64,000 bases of DNA from Actinomycetota bacterium. GTDB taxonomy: Bacteria > Actinomycetota > Acidimicrobiia > Acidimicrobiales > WLNW01. The translations under genes and the position numbers were made by a program. Below, one piece after another: positions 5,783 to 59,855 of the stretch. Under the pieces are notes generated by a model. The model worked only from the letters and a program-made list of their open reading frames with translations, made no database searches and was not told where the DNA came from. Where the stretch lies: contig WLNW01000001.1 in NCBI GenBank assembly GCA_009699605.1, forward strand, positions 8,960-72,959. Direction: 5' to 3'. How positions within the stretch are numbered: position 1 is the first letter of the stretch; each line of letters opens with the position of its first letter.

Positions 5783-6513
5783 GACAGACCCCCAAGGTCG
5801 TCCACCGAGCGTGGCGCGCACCAGTCGATCACGGCCACGAGCGCCTCGCATAAACGGTCCGAGGCCATGGCCAGGTTGGCCTCGAACTGCGCCACGGTGT
5901 CGGCATGCGCGTCGACCAGGTCGGTGATCGCCTTCACCGCCAGGATGGGCACATCGAGAAGCTCGGCCACCCAGGCCACGGCCGCGCCCTCCATGTCCTT
6001 CACCGACGCTCCGCTCGCCGCGATCATGCGCCGGTCGTCGTCGGTCTCGTCGAGGGAATTGCCGGTGGTCACGATGCCTTGGCGAAGGCCGAGCACCCGC
6101 GCGAGCGCATCGGCGCGCACCGCGGGATAGCTGCCGACCCCGTAGGACTCGTAGCCGGGGATCGCGATCCGTCGATCGTGATAGACGAAGTGCGTCTCGC
6201 TCAGGTAGACGTCGCCGATCCTCCCACCGGCCCGCGCCCATCCGCCGGCCGTGCCCGCAGTGATCACGAGATCTGGTCGGTGCTGCTCGAGCGCAAGGTA
6301 GGTGTTGAGCGCCGCGGGTTGCGTGCCGATCTTGTCGACGCCGTGGCGCGGGTCGCGTCCGTTCACCGCGACGACCACCTCGCAGCCGGAGCGTTCGGCC
6401 ACATACCAACCGAACGAGAGCGAGGGCGGCGACGCCCGCGCAACGGCACCGAGTCGTTCGAGCACCGGTGCTGCTTCGGCGCCCATGGCCATGACGATGA
6501 CGATCCGTTTCAT
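5779..6513 (-). CDS. 5'-methylthioadenosine/S-adenosylhomocysteine nucleosidase-family protein
   Basis: 244 aa. MKRIVIVMAMGAEAAP..., ITAGTAGG, VKDMEGAAVA and AVKAITDLVD are PNP_UDP_1/MTN-type blocks. Confidence 0.8.
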   Translation of the reverse strand: MKRIVIVMAMGAEAAPVLERLGAVARASPPSLSFGWYVAERSGCEVVVAVNGRDPRHGVDKIGTQPAALNTYLALEQHRPDLVITAGTAGGWARAGGRIGDVYLSETHFVYHDRRIAIPGYESYGVGSYPAVRADALARVLGLRQGIVTTGNSLDETDDDRRMIAASGASVKDMEGAAVAWVAELLDVPILAVKAITDLVDAHADTVAQFEANLAMASDRLCEALVAVIDWCAPRSVDDLGGLS

Positions 6514-44688: not shown

Positions 44689-45394
44689 CGCGTGACGGAT
44701 CTTCGGCGCGCCACTGCCCCTCGGGCAGATCGCCCAGCTCGTAGGGGCCGACCGAGATGCGGTGGAGTGACGCGACGCTCGGCCCGCACGCGCCGATCAT
44801 GCGGCGTACTTGCCGGTGACGGCCCTCGGTGAGCACAACCTCGATCCGGTCAGGGCGGTCGGTGGCCCGCAGCACCGCAGGCAGGCAAGGGTCGTCCTCG
44901 CCCTTGAGCATGATCGTGCCGGTCGCGAAAACCGCGGCCATGTCGGCCAACTCGCGTTCGGACAACGGCAGGTCGAGGCCCACGAGGTAGCGCTTCTCGA
45001 CATGGTGGCGGGGCGCCGCGAGCTGGTGCACCATCGGCAGGATGTCGGTGACAAGCAGCAGACCGCTCGAATCCTTGTCGAGCCGCCCGACCGAAGTGAC
45101 CTTGGGGTTGCGGGCCAGCCAGCGAGCGGGCAGCAGGTCGTACACCGGCGGGCCGTCCTTGTCCTCGTGGGAGCACACGACACCCACCGGTTTGTGGAAC
45201 GACACGAACAGGCCGTGCGGGAACTCGAGCGGCTCGCCGTCGATCGCGATGTCGGCCGGGTCGGCGTGGTGCTCGGGCCCGCGCACGACCTCACCCGCCA
45301 CGGTCACCCGGCCGTCGCGCACCGCGCGCTGTGCTTCACGGCGGGTGCCGTAGCCCAGGTTGGCGATGGCGCGGTCGAGTCGGAGATGTGTCAC
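44675..45394 (-). CDS. pseudouridine synthase, RsuA/RluB family
   Basis: GTG start VTHLRLDRAIANLG (S4 domain). ...TSVGRLDKDSSGLLLVT (catalytic Asp block), ...EGRHRQVRRM. Confidence 0.85.
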   Translation of the reverse strand: MTHLRLDRAIANLGYGTRREAQRAVRDGRVTVAGEVVRGPEHHADPADIAIDGEPLEFPHGLFVSFHKPVGVVCSHEDKDGPPVYDLLPARWLARNPKVTSVGRLDKDSSGLLLVTDILPMVHQLAAPRHHVEKRYLVGLDLPLSERELADMAAVFATGTIMLKGEDDPCLPAVLRATDRPDRIEVVLTEGRHRQVRRMIGACGPSVASLHRISVGPYELGDLPEGQWRAEDPSRVTVG

Positions 45395-45458
45395 CGGCCG
45401 AGGCTCCCACAAAGACCGTCCGCCTACACTGCGCAGAGGCGTGCAAGGGGGAAGTGCT

Positions 45459-46229
45459 GTGGAAGACGAACCGACCGGCGGACGTGCGGCGTGGTCACCG
45501 AGGGCGATGCCGGGCATCGGACGCGAGCTCACACCGCAACAAGAGCTGGCCATCGCGCTGCGTCACCTCGACGACATCGGTTTCTGCGAGAACCTCACCG
45601 GGCACATCACCTGGCAGCTCCCCAACGAGGACAACCTGCTCGTGAACCCGTGGGGCCTGTGGTGGGCCGAGACCACCGCGGCGGATGTGCTCACCATCGC
45701 TTTGAACGGCGATGTGGTCCACGGTCCGTGGGACGTGACCCCGGCATTTCACATCCACACCGAGTTGCACAAGAGGCGCCCCGATGCGCGCGTGGTGGTG
45801 CACAACCACCCCATGCATGCGACGATCCTCGCGGGCATCGGCGTGCTGCCCGACATCATCCACCAGAACTCGGCCATGTTCTTCGAGGAGATGGTCTTCA
45901 TCAACGAGTACGACGGCGAGGTCGCCACGTCCTCGGGCGGCGCAGCCATCGCCGACGCCATGGGCGATGCCTCCGTCGCACTGCTCGCGAGCCACGGGGT
46001 CATCGTGGTTGCGCCCACCATGGCCGAGGCCACGTACAAGTCAGCGCTGTTCGAGCGGGCCTGCGAGATCATGTACCGCTCGATGCTGCTCGGCCGCCCC
46101 ACCTTTCCGATCGACCCGGTGCACCTCAAGCCCATGAAGGCGTCGCTCATCGAACGCGCGGCCGAGGCGTACTGGGACGGCGCGGCGCGCCAACTCATCG
46201 CCGCCGAGCCTGAAGTCCTGAAGTCCTGA
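45459..46229 (+). CDS. class II aldolase/adducin-domain protein
   Basis: GTG 45459 preceded by AAGGGGGA (alternative ATG at 45507). ...HIHTELHKRRPDARVVVHNHP...LLASHGVIVVAPTMAEA. The stop falls inside the octamer repeat. Confidence 0.8.
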   Translation: MEDEPTGGRAAWSPRAMPGIGRELTPQQELAIALRHLDDIGFCENLTGHITWQLPNEDNLLVNPWGLWWAETTAADVLTIALNGDVVHGPWDVTPAFHIHTELHKRRPDARVVVHNHPMHATILAGIGVLPDIIHQNSAMFFEEMVFINEYDGEVATSSGGAAIADAMGDASVALLASHGVIVVAPTMAEATYKSALFERACEIMYRSMLLGRPTFPIDPVHLKPMKASLIERAAEAYWDGAARQLIAAEPEVLKS

Positions 46230-46272
46230 AGTCCTGAAGTCCTGAAGTCCTGAAGTCCTGAAGTCCTGAAGT
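46209..46272. repeat. perfect octanucleotide microsatellite (CCTGAAGT) x 8
   Basis: Hand-verified 64 nt of uninterrupted CCTGAAGT units. It covers the last 6 sense codons and the stop (46227-46229) of the aldolase gene and ends 29 nt before the ATG of the next gene. Confidence 0.95.
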
Positions 46273-46301
46273 TCCACGCCCCGCCCACCGGAGGTCCTGT
46301 C

Positions 46302-47558
46302 ATGGCGATGAGTTTCGACGAGCTCACTGCGAACGCCTCGTTCACCAAGAACGTCAAGGGTCAGTTCACGCTGCTACCTGATCCACCACGCGCCGACCGC
46401 GAGTACCTGATGATCTCGTGTGACGATCACATCGTCGAGCCCCCCGACACCTTCACCGGCCGCGTACCGAAGCACCTCGCCGAACGCGCTCCGCGCGTCA
46501 TCGAGAACGCCGACGGCTCCGAGCAGTGGCTGTTCGACGGCGAACTCATGCCGAACGTCGGATTCAACGCAGTGGCCGGTCGCCCGGTCGCCGAGTACAG
46601 CTTCGACCCCACCCGCTTCGACCAGATGCGCAAGGGCAGCTGGGACGTCGCGAGTCGCATCGACGACATGAACCTCGACGGCGTGTACGGCTCGCTCTGC
46701 TTTCCGTCGTTCATCCCGGGCTTCGCCGGGCAGCGCCTCTACAACGTGGCCAAGGACACGGAGCTTGCGGTGGCCTGCACCCGAGCCTGGAACGACTGGA
46801 TGCTCGACGAGTGGTGCGGGTACGCGCCCGACCGCCTCATCCCCAGCCAGCTGCCCATCTGGAGCGACCCGATCCTCGCTGCGGCCGAGATCCGAAAGAA
46901 CGCCGAGCGCGGCTTCAAGGCGATCTCGTTCTCCGAAGGCCCGCATCTGCTGGGTTACCCGTCGCTGCACACCGGCTACTGGGACCCGGTCATGGAGGCA
47001 TGCCAGGAGACCAGCACGGTCGTCTGCCTGCACGTCGGCTCGTCGGGCACCTCACCCGCCACCGCTCCCGATGCGCCGAGCGACGCCGTCGGCGCCCTGT
47101 TCTTCGCCTACGCCATGTACTCCGCCGTCGATTGGCTCTTCTCGAAGATCCCCGTGCGCTACCCCGACATCCAGATCTGTCTCAGTGAGGGCGGCATCGG
47201 TTGGGTCGCCGGGCTCATCGACCGCTTCGAGCACATGAACCAGTACAGCTCTATGTACGGCACCTGGGACGGCATCGAACTGACCCCGGCCGAGGTGTTC
47301 AAGCGCAACTTCTGGTTCTGCGCGATCGACGACCCGTCGTCGTTCCTGCAGACCGAGGTCATCGGCGTGAACAACATCATGGTCGAGAGTGATTACCCGC
47401 ACGCCGACACCACGTGGCCGCACACCCAGGACAAGCTGCACGCCCAGATCGCGCACCTGTCGCGCGCCGACCGCGATCGCATCTGCTGGGGCAACGCCGC
47501 CGAGTTGTTCGACCTCGAGGTGCCGGCGTCCTTGATCGCCGACCCCAACAGCTTCTAG
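46302..47558 (+). CDS. amidohydrolase-2 (ACMSD/metal-dependent hydrolase) family protein
   Basis: 418 aa. ...ISCDDHIVEPPDTF... (HxH-like metal site variant DDH), ...SDYPHADTTWP. GGAGG RBS. Confidence 0.85.
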   Translation: MAMSFDELTANASFTKNVKGQFTLLPDPPRADREYLMISCDDHIVEPPDTFTGRVPKHLAERAPRVIENADGSEQWLFDGELMPNVGFNAVAGRPVAEYSFDPTRFDQMRKGSWDVASRIDDMNLDGVYGSLCFPSFIPGFAGQRLYNVAKDTELAVACTRAWNDWMLDEWCGYAPDRLIPSQLPIWSDPILAAAEIRKNAERGFKAISFSEGPHLLGYPSLHTGYWDPVMEACQETSTVVCLHVGSSGTSPATAPDAPSDAVGALFFAYAMYSAVDWLFSKIPVRYPDIQICLSEGGIGWVAGLIDRFEHMNQYSSMYGTWDGIELTPAEVFKRNFWFCAIDDPSSFLQTEVIGVNNIMVESDYPHADTTWPHTQDKLHAQIAHLSRADRDRICWGNAAELFDLEVPASLIADPNSF

Positions 47559-47605
47559 CGCAGCCGGGGCGGCCCGCCAGGGGCACCGCGACATGATGGA
47601 CGGCG

Positions 47606-47722
47606 ATGGAGATCCTCCTTGTCGTCGCCGTGGTCGGTCTGTTCATCTTCGTGCCGCGGTATTTCCGTACCAAACGCCGTACCCGGGCCGAGGCCAAGGC
47701 ACGCCGGCGCACTCGCAACTGA
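47606..47722 (+). CDS. possible 38-aa membrane peptide
   Basis: MEILLVVAVVGLFIFVPRYFRTKRRTRAEAKARRRTRN*: one hydrophobic helix plus a strongly basic tail. Codons verified by hand, mostly G/C-ending. It is below the ORF-track size cut-off and has no strong RBS. Confidence 0.3.
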   Translation: MEILLVVAVVGLFIFVPRYFRTKRRTRAEAKARRRTRN

Positions 47723-48197
47723 GTCGAGCCGACCGGTCTCGCACCAACGCTGCGTCGACCGCGGAGTCAGGCACCTCTACGGTGCACAACTCGACACTCG
47801 TCCTGGTGCCCGGGGCGCTGCCTTGCCCACGGCTACCCGCTGCCCGGACGACACGGTCCTCGAAGTCGAGCGTGTCCAGCTCGTCGGGGGCGACGACCAG
47901 GCGGTACGCGCCGGGCACGGTGACGAGCTTCGTCGGTGGGCACTCCTCGCCGAGCAGGTCGCTCAGGCGATTGATGTGCACCTGCAGGGTGGCCCTGCTG
48001 CGCTTGGTGTTGTCGCTCCAGAGCGCCTCGACCAGGGTCTCGGTGACCACCCGCCACATGTCCGAGGATCTTGATCGCCAGCACGGCGCCTCCCCCGGTC
48101 GCGACATTACCAAGCCTGCTGCGGTCGCAACCTGACCGACCTCCGTGGTACGAAGGGCACCAATGAAAACCGTCCCTGCCGTAGACCCCCGCACCAT
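47643..48197 (-). pseudogene. truncated SARP/OmpR-type winged-helix DNA-binding domain (no BTAD or other C-terminal domain)
   Basis: ...VFIGALRTTEVGQ...LVMSRPGE...TETLVEALWSDNTKRSRATLQVHINRLSDLLGEE...LVTVPGAYRLVVAPDELDTLDFE matches the trans_reg_C / SARP N-terminal pattern. The tail after it is non-protein-like. The 5' end collides with the divergent acyl-CoA synthetase start. Confidence 0.4.
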
Positions 48198-49809
48198 CGA
48201 CGAACATGTCCGAGATGGCTGGTGGGGCACCGACACGCTGACCGATGTCATCCGACGCCAACGAGCCGACAACCCCGATGGCGTGGCCTTCGTCGACGAG
48301 CACGGCGATCGCATGACGTGGACCACCTACGACGAGCTGTCCGATCGTGTCGCCGCCGCGTTGATGTCGCTCGGCCTCGACCGCGGAGATCGTGTGGTGG
48401 TCTTCCTCCCGGATACCCCGCTCGTGCACGCAGCCTTCGTCGGCACCGAAAAGGCGGGACTGGTCATCATGGGCCTCGGCCACCGCGCCGGCGAGGCCGA
48501 GATGATCCACCTCGTGCGCAAGAGCGAAGCCCGCGCGATCATCACGCCGCTCACCCACCGCGACGAGAGCTCGAGCGCGCTCGTGGCCCGCCTACGGGCC
48601 GCCGTGCCGTCGCTCGAACACCACGTCGTGCTGCGCGGCCCGAGCAGCACCGCGGCGATCGCGGTCATGAACAGCACGACGGCATTGTCCAAGCCCGCGG
48701 ACCTGCGGGCCAGGATCGACGCCCAGCGCCTCGACCCGAACGAGCTGTTCCTGCTGAACAGCACCTCGGGCACCACCGGCCTGCCGAAGTGCGTGATGCA
48801 ATTCCAGAACCGTTGGTTCTACTTCCACAAGAAGGCCGCCGAGCTCGGCGCGCTGCGCCCCGACGACGTGTTCATGTCGGTCGTGCCGGCACCGTTCGGC
48901 TTCGGGCTGTGGACCGGCCACTTCACGCCGACCATCCTCGGCGCACCATGCGTGATCATGGACCACTTCTCGGCGCGCAAGATGGTCGAGATCATCGAAC
49001 GCGAACGGGTCACCGTGCTGTGCTGCGTGAGCACGCAATTCATCATGATGCTCAACCTGCCCGAACTGGCTGAGCACGACGTGTCGTCACTGCGGATCAT
49101 GTTCACGGGCGGCGAGGCCATACCCGAGGCCCGGGCCCGCGAGTTCGAAGCGCGCACCGGGTCGATGGTCATGAACTTCTACGGGTCGAACGAGACCGGC
49201 ACGTTGAGCGGTACGTCGATCGACGACCCGACCGTGAAGCGGCTCACCACCACCGGCCGCATCATGCCCGAAATGCAGGTGCGCCTGTACACGCCCGAGG
49301 GCGAACGCATCGCGGGCGACATCGGGCGGGGCGTGCCGGCGTGCAAAGGTCCGGCGACCACCATCGGCTACTACGACGACGAAGCCGCAAACGCCACGTT
49401 GTTCGCCGACGACGGTTGGATGCTCATGGGCGACGTCGTCGAGATCGACGCCGAGGGCTGGCTCAGCGTCGTCGGCCGGACAAGCGACTTCATCATCCGC
49501 GGCGGTAAGAACATCAGCGCGCCGGCGGTCGAGGACGAGGTCGCCACGCACCCGGCGGTGTCGATGGTGGCAGTCGTGCCCGCACCCGACCCCGTCTTCG
49601 GCGAGCGCGTCGCCGCCTTCGTCGAACTCCACGAGGGTGCGTCGCTCACCCTCGACGAACTGCGCGAGCACCTCATCGCCCGCGGCATCTCGAAGGAGTG
49701 GTATCCCGAATACCTGTTCATCACCGACGCGCTGCCACGCGCGTCGGGGGGCAAGGTCGCAAAGGGCGAGCTGAAAAAGGACGCGGCCGCACGCGTCGCC
49801 GAGAGCTGA
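48163..49809 (+). CDS. AMP-dependent acyl-CoA synthetase/ligase
   Basis: ATG 48163 preceded by GAAGGG. LLNSTSGTTGLPKCV (AMP-binding motif), ...GDVVEIDAEGWLSVVGRTSDFIIRGGKNISAPAVE. Confidence 0.9.
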   Translation: MKTVPAVDPRTIDEHVRDGWWGTDTLTDVIRRQRADNPDGVAFVDEHGDRMTWTTYDELSDRVAAALMSLGLDRGDRVVVFLPDTPLVHAAFVGTEKAGLVIMGLGHRAGEAEMIHLVRKSEARAIITPLTHRDESSSALVARLRAAVPSLEHHVVLRGPSSTAAIAVMNSTTALSKPADLRARIDAQRLDPNELFLLNSTSGTTGLPKCVMQFQNRWFYFHKKAAELGALRPDDVFMSVVPAPFGFGLWTGHFTPTILGAPCVIMDHFSARKMVEIIERERVTVLCCVSTQFIMMLNLPELAEHDVSSLRIMFTGGEAIPEARAREFEARTGSMVMNFYGSNETGTLSGTSIDDPTVKRLTTTGRIMPEMQVRLYTPEGERIAGDIGRGVPACKGPATTIGYYDDEAANATLFADDGWMLMGDVVEIDAEGWLSVVGRTSDFIIRGGKNISAPAVEDEVATHPAVSMVAVVPAPDPVFGERVAAFVELHEGASLTLDELREHLIARGISKEWYPEYLFITDALPRASGGKVAKGELKKDAAARVAES

Positions 49810-58212: not shown

Positions 58213-58980
58213 ATGAGCAGCGCGTCGGCGGGGCCTACGAATGCGGGGCTTGCCGGCCGCGTTGCGCTGGTCACCGGCGCCGGCCGCAACGTCGGGGCCG
58301 GGATCGCGCACGCCCTCGCTGCGGCGGGCGCCCACGTGGCGGTCAACGACCTGCACGGCGAACGGGCCGAGGCCACAGCCCAGGAGATCATCGCTCGTGG
58401 CGGGACCGCTATTGCGATTGCGGCCGACGTCTGCGACGCCGAACAGGTCAGGGCGGCCTGCGACGCGACCATTCGAGAACTGGGCCCGATCGACATCCTG
58501 GTCAACAACGCAGGTGTGCCCGACGCCGGGGTGCCGCTGCAGGCGTTTCGTGACATGCCCATCGAGGATTGGGATCGCTACCTACGCCTCAACCTCCACG
58601 CCGTGCTGTTGTGCGCGAAGGCCGTTCTCGACCCGATGTGCGACCGCGGCTTCGGCCGCATCATCACCATCACCAGCGAGGCGGGGCGGCTGGGCGTGCC
58701 CCCCGGGCTCTCGTTGTACGCGGCGGGCAAGGCAGGCGCCGCGGGGTTCTCCCGCGTGCTGGCACACGAGGTCGGCAAGTTCGGGGTCACGGTGAACTGC
58801 GTGTCACTCGGGCCCATGGAGAACGCCACGATGCGCGAGCAGGTCCTGAAAGCCATGCCAACCCGCCGCTACGGCACTCCGGCCGACGTGGGCGCTGCCG
58901 TGGCCTATCTTGCGTCGCCCGGGGCCAGCTGGGTCACCGGCCAGACCCTCGCGGTCAACGGAGGACACTTCACCACATGA
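58213..58980 (+). CDS. short-chain dehydrogenase/reductase (SDR)
   Basis: VTGAGRNVGAGIA and YAAGKAG. 255 aa. Confidence 0.9.
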   Translation: MSSASAGPTNAGLAGRVALVTGAGRNVGAGIAHALAAAGAHVAVNDLHGERAEATAQEIIARGGTAIAIAADVCDAEQVRAACDATIRELGPIDILVNNAGVPDAGVPLQAFRDMPIEDWDRYLRLNLHAVLLCAKAVLDPMCDRGFGRIITITSEAGRLGVPPGLSLYAAGKAGAAGFSRVLAHEVGKFGVTVNCVSLGPMENATMREQVLKAMPTRRYGTPADVGAAVAYLASPGASWVTGQTLAVNGGHFTT

Positions 58981-59855
58981 ACACCCCACTCGCGCCTGAC
59001 CACATGGACGCGCCGCTGGTGCCTGACCACATGGACGCGCCGCTGGTGCCTGATCACATGGACGCGCCGCTGGTGCTGACGGCATCGGCGCTCGAGAACC
59101 CGTCCATCGAGATCGTGGTCGACGCGGCGCGACGCGCCGGCTTCGACGCGCTGTCGCTCTGGCCCGGGGCGGGCTACGGCGCGACCGCCGACCATCGCCG
59201 CGTCATCGAAGACGCCGGCCTGTATGTGTGGGATGTCGACGCGGCCATCGTGTGGGTCGGCCCCGACGATCCGGGCAGCCCCTACTTCGAAGAGGCGCCC
59301 ATCGACGACGTGTTCGCCTCTGCTGCAGCGCTCGGCGCCCGGGCGGTGAACGCGCTCATGATCGGCCCGCGCGGCCAGACCTCACTCGAGGCCTGCGCGC
59401 GAGCGGTGCAGATCGTGGCCGCGCGAGCCGCGGACCTCGGCATGTTGCTCACCGTCGAATTCGCCCGGAGCACGGCGGTGGCCGACCTGCACCAGGCCAA
59501 CGCCGTCCTCGCCGACACCGGGGCGCCCAACGCCGGGATCCTCCTGGATACGTGGCACCACCATTGGAGCAACGTCCGCGACGCACCGTTCGAGCGGGTG
59601 CGCGCCATCCAGCTGTCGGATGCGCCCCACGAACGACCTGTCGACTTCCCCCAGGCCACCCGACACCGTCGCGAGGTGCCGGGCACCGGAGCGGTCGACT
59701 TCGCGCCGATCCTGAGCGGCGCGCCCGCCGGTACACCACTGATCGTCGAGGTCTTCAACGGGCCGCTGCTCGCACGCCACGGCATCACCGGTTTCGCACA
59801 GGTACTCGGCGACGCGGCACGCCACGTGCGCAATCGCCCGATCGAATCGGCCTGA
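58977..59855 (+). CDS. sugar-phosphate isomerase/epimerase (xylose-isomerase-like TIM barrel) family protein
   Basis: The ATG overlaps the SDR stop (ATGA). ...IEIVVDAARRAGFDALSLW..., ...GILLDTWHHHWS. The N-terminus carries the 27-bp repeats, so the true start may be one of the in-repeat ATGs (last at 59058). Confidence 0.8.
   Translation: MNTPLAPDHMDAPLVPDHMDAPLVPDHMDAPLVLTASALENPSIEIVVDAARRAGFDALSLWPGAGYGATADHRRVIEDAGLYVWDVDAAIVWVGPDDPGSPYFEEAPIDDVFASAAALGARAVNALMIGPRGQTSLEACARAVQIVAARAADLGMLLTVEFARSTAVADLHQANAVLADTGAPNAGILLDTWHHHWSNVRDAPFERVRAIQLSDAPHERPVDFPQATRHRREVPGTGAVDFAPILSGAPAGTPLIVEVFNGPLLARHGITGFAQVLGDAARHVRNRPIESA
58995..59075 (+). repeat. 27-bp tandem repeat x 3 (in frame, PDHMDAPLV x 3)
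   Basis: CCTGACCACATGGACGCGCCGCTGGTG at 58995, 59022 and 59049. The third copy has one C>T change. Confidence 0.9.

Follow-up and report, generated by a model that had tools for sequence, protein, structure and literature searches.

A copy-number-variable octanucleotide microsatellite between an aldolase and an amidohydrolase gene of an uncultured freshwater Acidimicrobiales bacterium, probably a near-neutral intercistronic spacer

A perfect array of eight-nucleotide repeats lying between two metabolic genes of a high-G+C bacterium raises the question of whether it acts as a switch on the second gene or is a by-product of replication slippage. The array, (CCTGAAGT)x8, occupies positions 46209..46272 on the plus strand of a 64,000-nt stretch of contig WLNW01000001.1 (in the following, the window; G+C content 67.6%) from an uncultured freshwater Acidimicrobiales bacterium, and it separates a class II aldolase gene from an amidohydrolase gene. 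An original prediction, made from the letters of the window, proposed that the array had expanded recently and that slippage would alter the spacing in front of the amidohydrolase gene. We compared the array with the same junction in nearly identical strains and in more distant relatives, and analyzed its coding, RNA, and promoter context. Judged from these sequence comparisons, we consider it, with a probability of about 0.65, a locus-specific hypermutable octanucleotide microsatellite, i.e. a variable-number tandem repeat (VNTR), forming a near-neutral intercistronic spacer between the aldolase and amidohydrolase genes. The tract is thus probably a near-neutral by-product of slippage and not a switch.

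Direct reading and Tandem Repeats Finder (TRF) agree with the predicted eight uninterrupted units over 64 nt, TRF reporting period 8, 8.0 copies, 100% matches, no indels, and a score of 128, which is rank 2 among the TRF scores of the window. With head-to-tail copies of high identity and a unit length within the range of 1–9 nt, the array is a microsatellite. Further copies of CCTGAAGT, for which a search had been proposed, were found on neither strand of the 64-kb window outside the array; the expectation for the window is 0.62, and none of 100 dinucleotide-preserving shuffles reached eight. Arrays with a unit length not divisible by three had been predicted to be rare; over the window and 59 loci (445 kb of related DNA), this one is the sole non-triplet array with at least four copies and at least 95% matches.

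The upstream gene, of the class II aldolase/adducin family (45459..46229, plus strand; Pfam PF00596, Aldolase_II, E=2.7e-38), ends with ...GCC GCC GAG CCT GAA GTC CTG AAG TCC TGA, the final six codons and the stop being situated within the array. Units 1 to 3 are translated as P-E-V-L-K-S-stop, with the TGA at 46227..46229 (plus strand) inside unit 3, while units 3 to 8 represent untranslated intercistronic spacer; the array contains none of the start codons ATG, GTG, and TTG. A right flank of 29 nt (TCCACGCCCCGCCCACCGGAGGTCCTGTC; 46273..46301, plus strand) follows, carrying the Shine-Dalgarno (SD) sequence GGAGG at 46290-46294, 7 nt before the ATG (46302) of the Amidohydro_2 gene (46302..47558, plus strand; 418 aa; Pfam PF04909, E=5e-30), which encodes a TIM-barrel metal-dependent hydrolase. 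The spacer from stop to ATG comprises 72 nt in the window. This layout is the one originally described, with the aldolase end EPEVLKS* and its stop in the third unit, and with the array ending 29 nt before the amidohydrolase ATG and the ribosome binding site GGAGG at about 46289. All factual details of that description were confirmed.

To compare copy numbers, alleles were read from assembled contigs, and identity is given as nucleotide identity of the amidohydrolase gene to that of the window. Twelve assemblies have a 100% identical amidohydrolase gene; six of them carry eight perfect units (the window, L001, and L006-L009) and six carry seven (L002-L005, L010, and L127), with 0 differences over the 1,245-nt amidohydrolase gene and identical array flanks. 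Three slightly diverged strains (99.1-99.5%) have four perfect units (L126), CCCGAAGT followed by three units (L125), and CCCGAAGT GCTCAAGT followed by six units (L124). Copy number hence shifts by entire units of 8 nt, so that the spacer between stop and ATG measures 40, 64, or 72 nt, and these whole-unit differences among close strains with conserved flanks are those of a VNTR. An invariant copy number in related strains had been named as the result that would speak against the prediction; 8, 7, 4, 1+3, and 2+6 units were found instead. The predicted recent expansion is upheld by the perfect 7-8-unit arrays being confined to strains with a 100% identical flanking gene, and further by slightly diverged strains and sister species carrying shorter, interrupted, or decayed arrays. 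Repeat number was also compared with 17 informative single-nucleotide polymorphisms (SNPs) in the 7.2-kb locus, and for 16 of them, including a SNP only 49 nt away, all four gametes were present, a pattern which fits recurrent slippage.

Two further observations were made on the strains of this 7.2-kb locus. Compared with the window, L001-L010 show 21 SNPs which are strongly mosaic among the otherwise identical strains, reflecting either frequent recombination in the population or chimeric consensus contigs. L009 has a 5-nt deletion at alignment columns 5897-5901, which breaks the AMP-binding enzyme gene into fragments and points either to a pseudogene in this strain or to an error of assembly.

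For the origin of the array, junction states were ordered on a neighbour-joining tree of the amidohydrolase gene; the P0027 contig (95% identity) and L131 stop short of the junction and give no state. L129/L130 (~95%) read CCTGAAGT CCTGAAGT CCTGA and then GAACCCGGCGTCCCACGCC..., the aldolase ending PEVLKS* and the spacer comprising 41 nt. L064 (90.4%) contains a decayed array of ~6 units in the same register (CCCGAAGT ACTGAAGT CCTGAGGT CCTGAAGT CCTGAGTT CCTGAAGT CCGGAGAA...; TRF 5.9 copies, 82% matches), again with PEVLKS* and with a spacer of 71 nt. No array is present in L119-L123, L128, and L132 (~86-89%), where the aldolase ends ...EPEILK* (CCC GAG ATC TTG AAA TGA) and is followed by a 25-nt spacer (CCTTGCGCCTACTGGAGGTTCTGTC) with its own SD, the 3′ part of which (~20 nt) aligns with, and is homologous to, the 3′ part of the right flank in the window. 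In more distant relatives, the aldolase ends ...EPEVLD* with a 20-nt spacer (L065/L069/L070, ~78%), ...DPEVLN* with a -1 overlap (L017/L018, ~78%), or ...EPEVLTCR* with a -10 overlap (L011-L016, ~80%). The motif GAGAACC(C)GGCGTC is common to L129/L130 and L064 and was lost in the window lineage, where 16 nt, i.e. two unit lengths, are missing. On the tree, the origin of the array falls after the L119 split.

The unit itself can be traced to the protein tail. The P-E-V-L-K codons CCT GAA GTC CTG AAG T correspond to two 8-nt units, and a partial third unit supplies Ser and TGA. We infer that the array was born in place via slippage from the conserved PEVL(K) C-terminus codons, because the unit equals the P-E-V(-L-K) codons, L129/L130 have two units, and the L119 group has no array; the repeat thus has a local proto-repeat and does not look like an inserted element. 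All variants of the first units in other strains are synonymous (CCC/CCT, GTA/GTG/GTC, CTG/CTC), and these units are, to judge from their codons, still under protein-coding constraint. The same flanks were not seen at any of 45 other (CCTGAAGT)≥3 arrays in 241 million metagenome records, which yielded no extra alleles; these arrays lie in heterogeneous, often AT-rich contexts. Since none of the 45 shares the flanks, the unit is not a mobile, dispersed, or family element. Neither the derivation of the unit from the aldolase C-terminus codons nor the tight or overlapping gene junction in relatives was part of the original prediction.

Long arrays of CCTGAAGT and near-variants do occur on unrelated contigs (L019-L063, e.g. 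L053, L054, and L057; series Ga0163155/Ga0163147), some reaching 10 perfect units, interspersed with blocks of GCTGAAGT and CGTGAAGT; many of these contigs come from AT-rich or mat-type metagenomes. A second, independent tandem-repeat expansion at the aldolase/amidohydrolase junction is evident from the sequence of L066 (Acidimicrobiia metagenome-assembled genome (MAG) OTE_78_metabat_91), where a AACCCCGCGCAAATC repeat of 4.9 copies with 88% matches at L066:2897-2970 leads to a spacer of 103 nt. We rejected the idea that a duplication of the aldolase 3′ end gave rise to the CCGGAGGTCCTG on the right-hand side of the array. It had come from relatives with 84% identity, in which P-E-V-L is encoded as CCGGAGGTnCTC, doubling as SD, and it was dropped because L119-L123 show that the SD-bearing 25-nt spacer, the homologue of the right flank, predates the array.

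Concerning translation, the unit contains TGA in all three plus-strand frames within 24 nt; the array is therefore closed to read-through, and the aldolase ends PEVLKS* in unit 3. All alleles, ranging from 2.6 to 8 units, have this C-terminus. The original prediction considered it safe with at least three units, and it is preserved even with two units plus CCTGA. Because there is a stop in all frames, the ON/OFF frameshift of phase variation does not occur here, and the ATG of the next gene is 29 nt beyond the array.

At the level of transcription and RNA, consensus scans detected no sigma-70-like promoter or terminator in 45200-47800, the lineage's own promoters being uncharacterised, and found the 200 nt preceding the amidohydrolase ATG to be free of the -10 motif TANNNT. 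As these sites are missing and the junctions in relatives are tight or overlapping, we infer that aldolase and amidohydrolase are co-transcribed. For 45300-46500 there was no Rfam match at E≤1. The array fold was predicted at -5.6 kcal/mol versus -13.6 ± 3.2 kcal/mol for shuffles and is less stable than these, so neither an Rfam match nor a stable conserved structure marks it as a structured RNA element. The predicted unpaired probability of the SD stays flat at 0.17-0.20 for 3 to 14 units. A mechanism via RNA structure or SD occlusion found no support, accessibility being the same across copy numbers.

In native gene pairs, termination-reinitiation coupling drops sharply as the distance grows and has nearly vanished at ~20-38 nt; coupled pairs have a stop/start overlap or an intergenic distance of ~10-20 nt or less (PMC10666635). 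All alleles here have spacers of 40-72 nt and lie outside this range, while relatives at 76-84% identity with -10 and -1 overlaps lie within it. The overlaps in relatives suggest that the two genes were formerly coupled translationally. Regarding the predicted effect of slippage on promoter or leader spacing, the whole 8-nt steps were confirmed, but consensus scans showed no promoter on which they could act, predicted SD accessibility is flat, and the spacers exceed the coupling range.

Taken together, the preferred explanation would proceed as follows. Two units already existed as a proto-repeat in the P-E-V-L-K codons, and the 95% relative would still represent this state with two units plus CCTGA. 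Replication slippage would then have added units in the lineage of the window, the perfect 7-8-unit tract being presumably the youngest, homogenised state, while in L064, the 90% relative, the tract would have been eroded by point mutations. Translation would stop in unit 3, leaving the remainder as an untranslated and, by prediction, unstructured RNA spacer which gains or loses 8 nt with each slippage event. The amidohydrolase would most likely be initiated independently from its own strong SD GGAGG, and with independent initiation a change in copy number would probably have little or no effect on expression.

Several points weigh against this explanation. The four-gamete patterns beyond 141 nt are equally possible from recombination or chimeric consensus contigs, and the (a,7) haplotype at the SNP 49 nt away depends on a single NCBI MAG. 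The unrelated 15-nt repeat with five copies at the junction of L066, a distant relative, could hint at selection for a longer spacer and not at chance alone. Near-neutrality is deduced from sequence and from coupling distances determined in E. coli and Haloferax, not in Actinobacteria. Finally, balancing or fluctuating selection could underlie the even 6:6 split between alleles with 7 and 8 units in one population.

These points lead to the first alternative, which we consider unlikely, namely a contingency-type rheostat in which slippage of the spacer length tunes amidohydrolase versus aldolase output and the population holds pre-existing variants. This could work through residual ribosome hand-over or standby binding, through Rho-dependent polarity on a longer stretch of naked RNA, or through mRNA stability. 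The tract appears hypermutable and is polymorphic inside one population and lies exactly between the stop and the next SD, where the genes of relatives overlap and are presumably coupled; in addition, the L066 junction has expanded an unrelated second tandem repeat, and in Haemophilus influenzae upstream repeats with 7-, 8-, and 9-nt units modulate or may modulate expression (PMC2651432). The flank 3′ of the array is C-rich and G-poor (TCCACGCCCCGCCCACC), which might be read as loosely rut-like. However, consensus scans gave neither a promoter nor a -10 motif whose spacing could matter, predicted SD accessibility is constant over copy numbers, and all alleles (40-72 nt) are past the experimentally measured coupling range. 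The array-less sister lineage already has a 25-nt spacer with its own SD, the array was allowed to decay in L064, and the genes encode metabolic enzymes, whereas contingency loci typically serve surface or restriction-modification functions (PMC11868660). The more specific proposal that the array is a selected slippage rheostat on a metabolic operon, with the 7- and 8-unit states kept in one lake population as a bet-hedge and with the L066 repeat as a convergent case, appears more doubtful still.

Next, the true copy number might be fixed and the 7- and 8-unit (or 4-unit) states might have arisen by repeat collapse in de Bruijn graphs. By our own reasoning, seven units (56 nt) and eight units (64 nt) straddle k=55, the usual largest k in SPAdes-type assemblers, and arrays of at least eight units could collapse to seven. 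The SPIRE-style records (L001-L004, L007, L009, L010, and L127), however, include both alleles. SPIRE assemblies were generated with MEGAHIT v1.2.9 at default settings (PMC10767986), and MEGAHIT k-mers of up to 141 cover the array and its flanks. Because both alleles stem from MEGAHIT-default assemblies, collapse at k=55 was judged unlikely. The 4-unit and interrupted alleles are located on k141_ contigs with independent SNPs in flanks and units, and sister species show further, differing states, which leaves an artefact very improbable.

There is very little to be said for a functional DNA site array. Each unit includes CTGAAG, and the eight tandem sites for enzymes of the Eco57I/AcuI type pointed out in the original prediction do exist and could be imagined as a restriction target or an operator array. 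Yet CTGAAG is not avoided in the window, with 23 sites outside the array versus 16.3 ± 3.8 expected for the whole window, and the sites are best seen as a coincidence of letters, the unit being explained by the P-E-V-L-K codons. Their number is not conserved (2 to 8, degraded in L064), the 8-bp period places successive sites on different helix faces, and no restriction-modification gene turned up near the locus, none having been looked for. The idea of a minus-strand coding repeat, (TSGLQDFR)n inside antisense open reading frames (ORFs) of 78 aa (46041-46277, minus strand) or 202 aa (45749-46357, minus strand), can practically be dismissed, since, although the array is open in all three minus frames and both ORFs cross it, both lie opposite well-supported genes, shadow ORFs being common at the 67.6% G+C of this genome, both are without a Pfam match, an 8-nt indel shifts the frame between 7- and 8-unit strains, the array is absent in close relatives, and the antisense ORF is largely unconserved.

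The near-neutral VNTR can be placed among known repeat systems. In H. influenzae, an octanucleotide repeat (ATTATTTG)1-6 is located 12 bp upstream of the housekeeping gene pdxS, and (GCATCATC)12-15 is found upstream of the hmw genes (PMC2651432). Like these simple sequence repeats (SSRs), the array consists of perfect head-to-tail 8-nt units just upstream of a gene and differs among strains by whole units; like the pdxS tract in particular, it adjoins a housekeeping metabolic gene, function being unproven in both cases. Unlike them, it belongs to a high-GC, free-living, uncultured freshwater Acidimicrobiales bacterium and not to an AT-rich host-adapted pathogen, and it starts in the upstream coding sequence, supplies the stop of the latter, and lies between two co-oriented cistrons instead of in a promoter.

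Contingency loci (Moxon et al.) are defined by frequent and reversible changes of a phenotype or of expression (PMC11868660). What the locus would have in common with them is localised slipped-strand hypermutation, units that can be both gained and lost, and a heterogeneous population. It differs in that, as far as the sequence indicates, an ON/OFF frameshift is impossible, the C-terminus is invariant, and no promoter spacing is affected. The genes, Aldolase_II and Amidohydro_2, are metabolic enzyme genes and do not belong to the classes of surface, host/phage interaction, or restriction-modification genes which contingency loci typically control.

The life cycle of microsatellites, with proto-repeat birth, expansion, interruption, and decay, is best described in eukaryotes (PMC4102424, PMC2997547). 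Its stages are matched here by a 2-unit proto-repeat, an expansion to 4-8 perfect units, variants with interruptions, and the decay seen in the 90% relative; the present locus differs in that the proto-repeat derives from conserved C-terminus codons and the first units are coding-constrained.

A further comparison is with the mycobacterial interspersed repetitive units (MIRU-VNTR), which have units of ~40-100 bp, form a family dispersed over many loci, and often carry small ORFs preserving translational coupling. Both are actinobacterial intercistronic operon repeats that are polymorphic among strains; unlike MIRU-VNTR, the unit here has 8 nt, originated in situ at the one locus where it occurs, and has a stop in every frame.

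The locus is thus an intergenic microsatellite of the known bacterial SSR/VNTR type. Unusual are the high-GC free-living host, the origin from protein-tail codons, the three closed frames, and the completeness of the series of birth, expansion, and decay that public assemblies provide. As a natural series of microsatellite birth from conserved protein-tail codons, expansion, interruption, and decay, it is unusually complete, and it illustrates how an ancestrally tight gene junction became a long spacer without a change in either protein. Even if it is no more than it appears, the array offers a ready high-resolution VNTR strain marker for an abundant uncultured freshwater Acidimicrobiales population and shows that short tandem repeats call for care in metagenome assembly and gene calling. 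The locus would gain importance if copy number did tune enzyme ratios: to our knowledge, nearly all documented cases of SSR-based bet-hedging come from host-associated bacteria and concern surface or restriction-modification functions, not metabolic operons of free-living plankton.

Regarding the flanking genes, the likely start codon of the aldolase is GTG at 45459, giving 256 aa (MEDEPTGG..., MEDEPTGGRAAW...), because it aligns with the N-termini of relatives (MQTEPKGGAAAW...; 257-aa orthologues). In most assemblies, the start is called at ATG 45507 (240 aa); public records contain 240-, 256-, and 287-aa versions of the gene, the 256-aa and 240-aa forms sharing one protein cluster. The exact amidohydrolase protein is present on at least 23 contigs from freshwater metagenome assemblies and MAGs labelled 'Actinobacteria bacterium', and its orthologues are common across Acidimicrobiia; the nearest GTDB species representative is L064, an Acidimicrobiales MAG with 95% aa identity. 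Gene order is kept among these contigs and comprises a zinc-dependent alcohol dehydrogenase (Zn-ADH), a pseudouridine synthase (minus strand), the aldolase, the amidohydrolase, and an AMP-binding enzyme. With Aldolase_II, Amidohydro_2, Zn-ADH, and AMP-binding enzyme genes, the surrounding cluster looks catabolic.

Downstream of the amidohydrolase gene, ~88 aa encoded at 47643-48326 (minus strand) match residues 40-127 of a 979-aa Trans_reg_C/BTAD/AAA regulator with 67% identity. The 979-aa regulator fills the corresponding position in L012, L014, and L015, and from this alignment it appears to be reduced to a remnant in the species of the window. Another tandem repeat, with a 27-nt unit, 4.1 copies, 89% matches, and a TRF score of 162, is located at 58972-59080 of the window. 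It begins at the ATGA stop/start overlap of an SDR-like gene (stop 58978-58980) and a xylose-isomerase-like TIM-barrel gene (PF01261). Each of its units contains an in-frame ATG and encodes M-D-A-P-L-V-P-D-H; the start region of two coupled genes appears to have been duplicated in tandem here.

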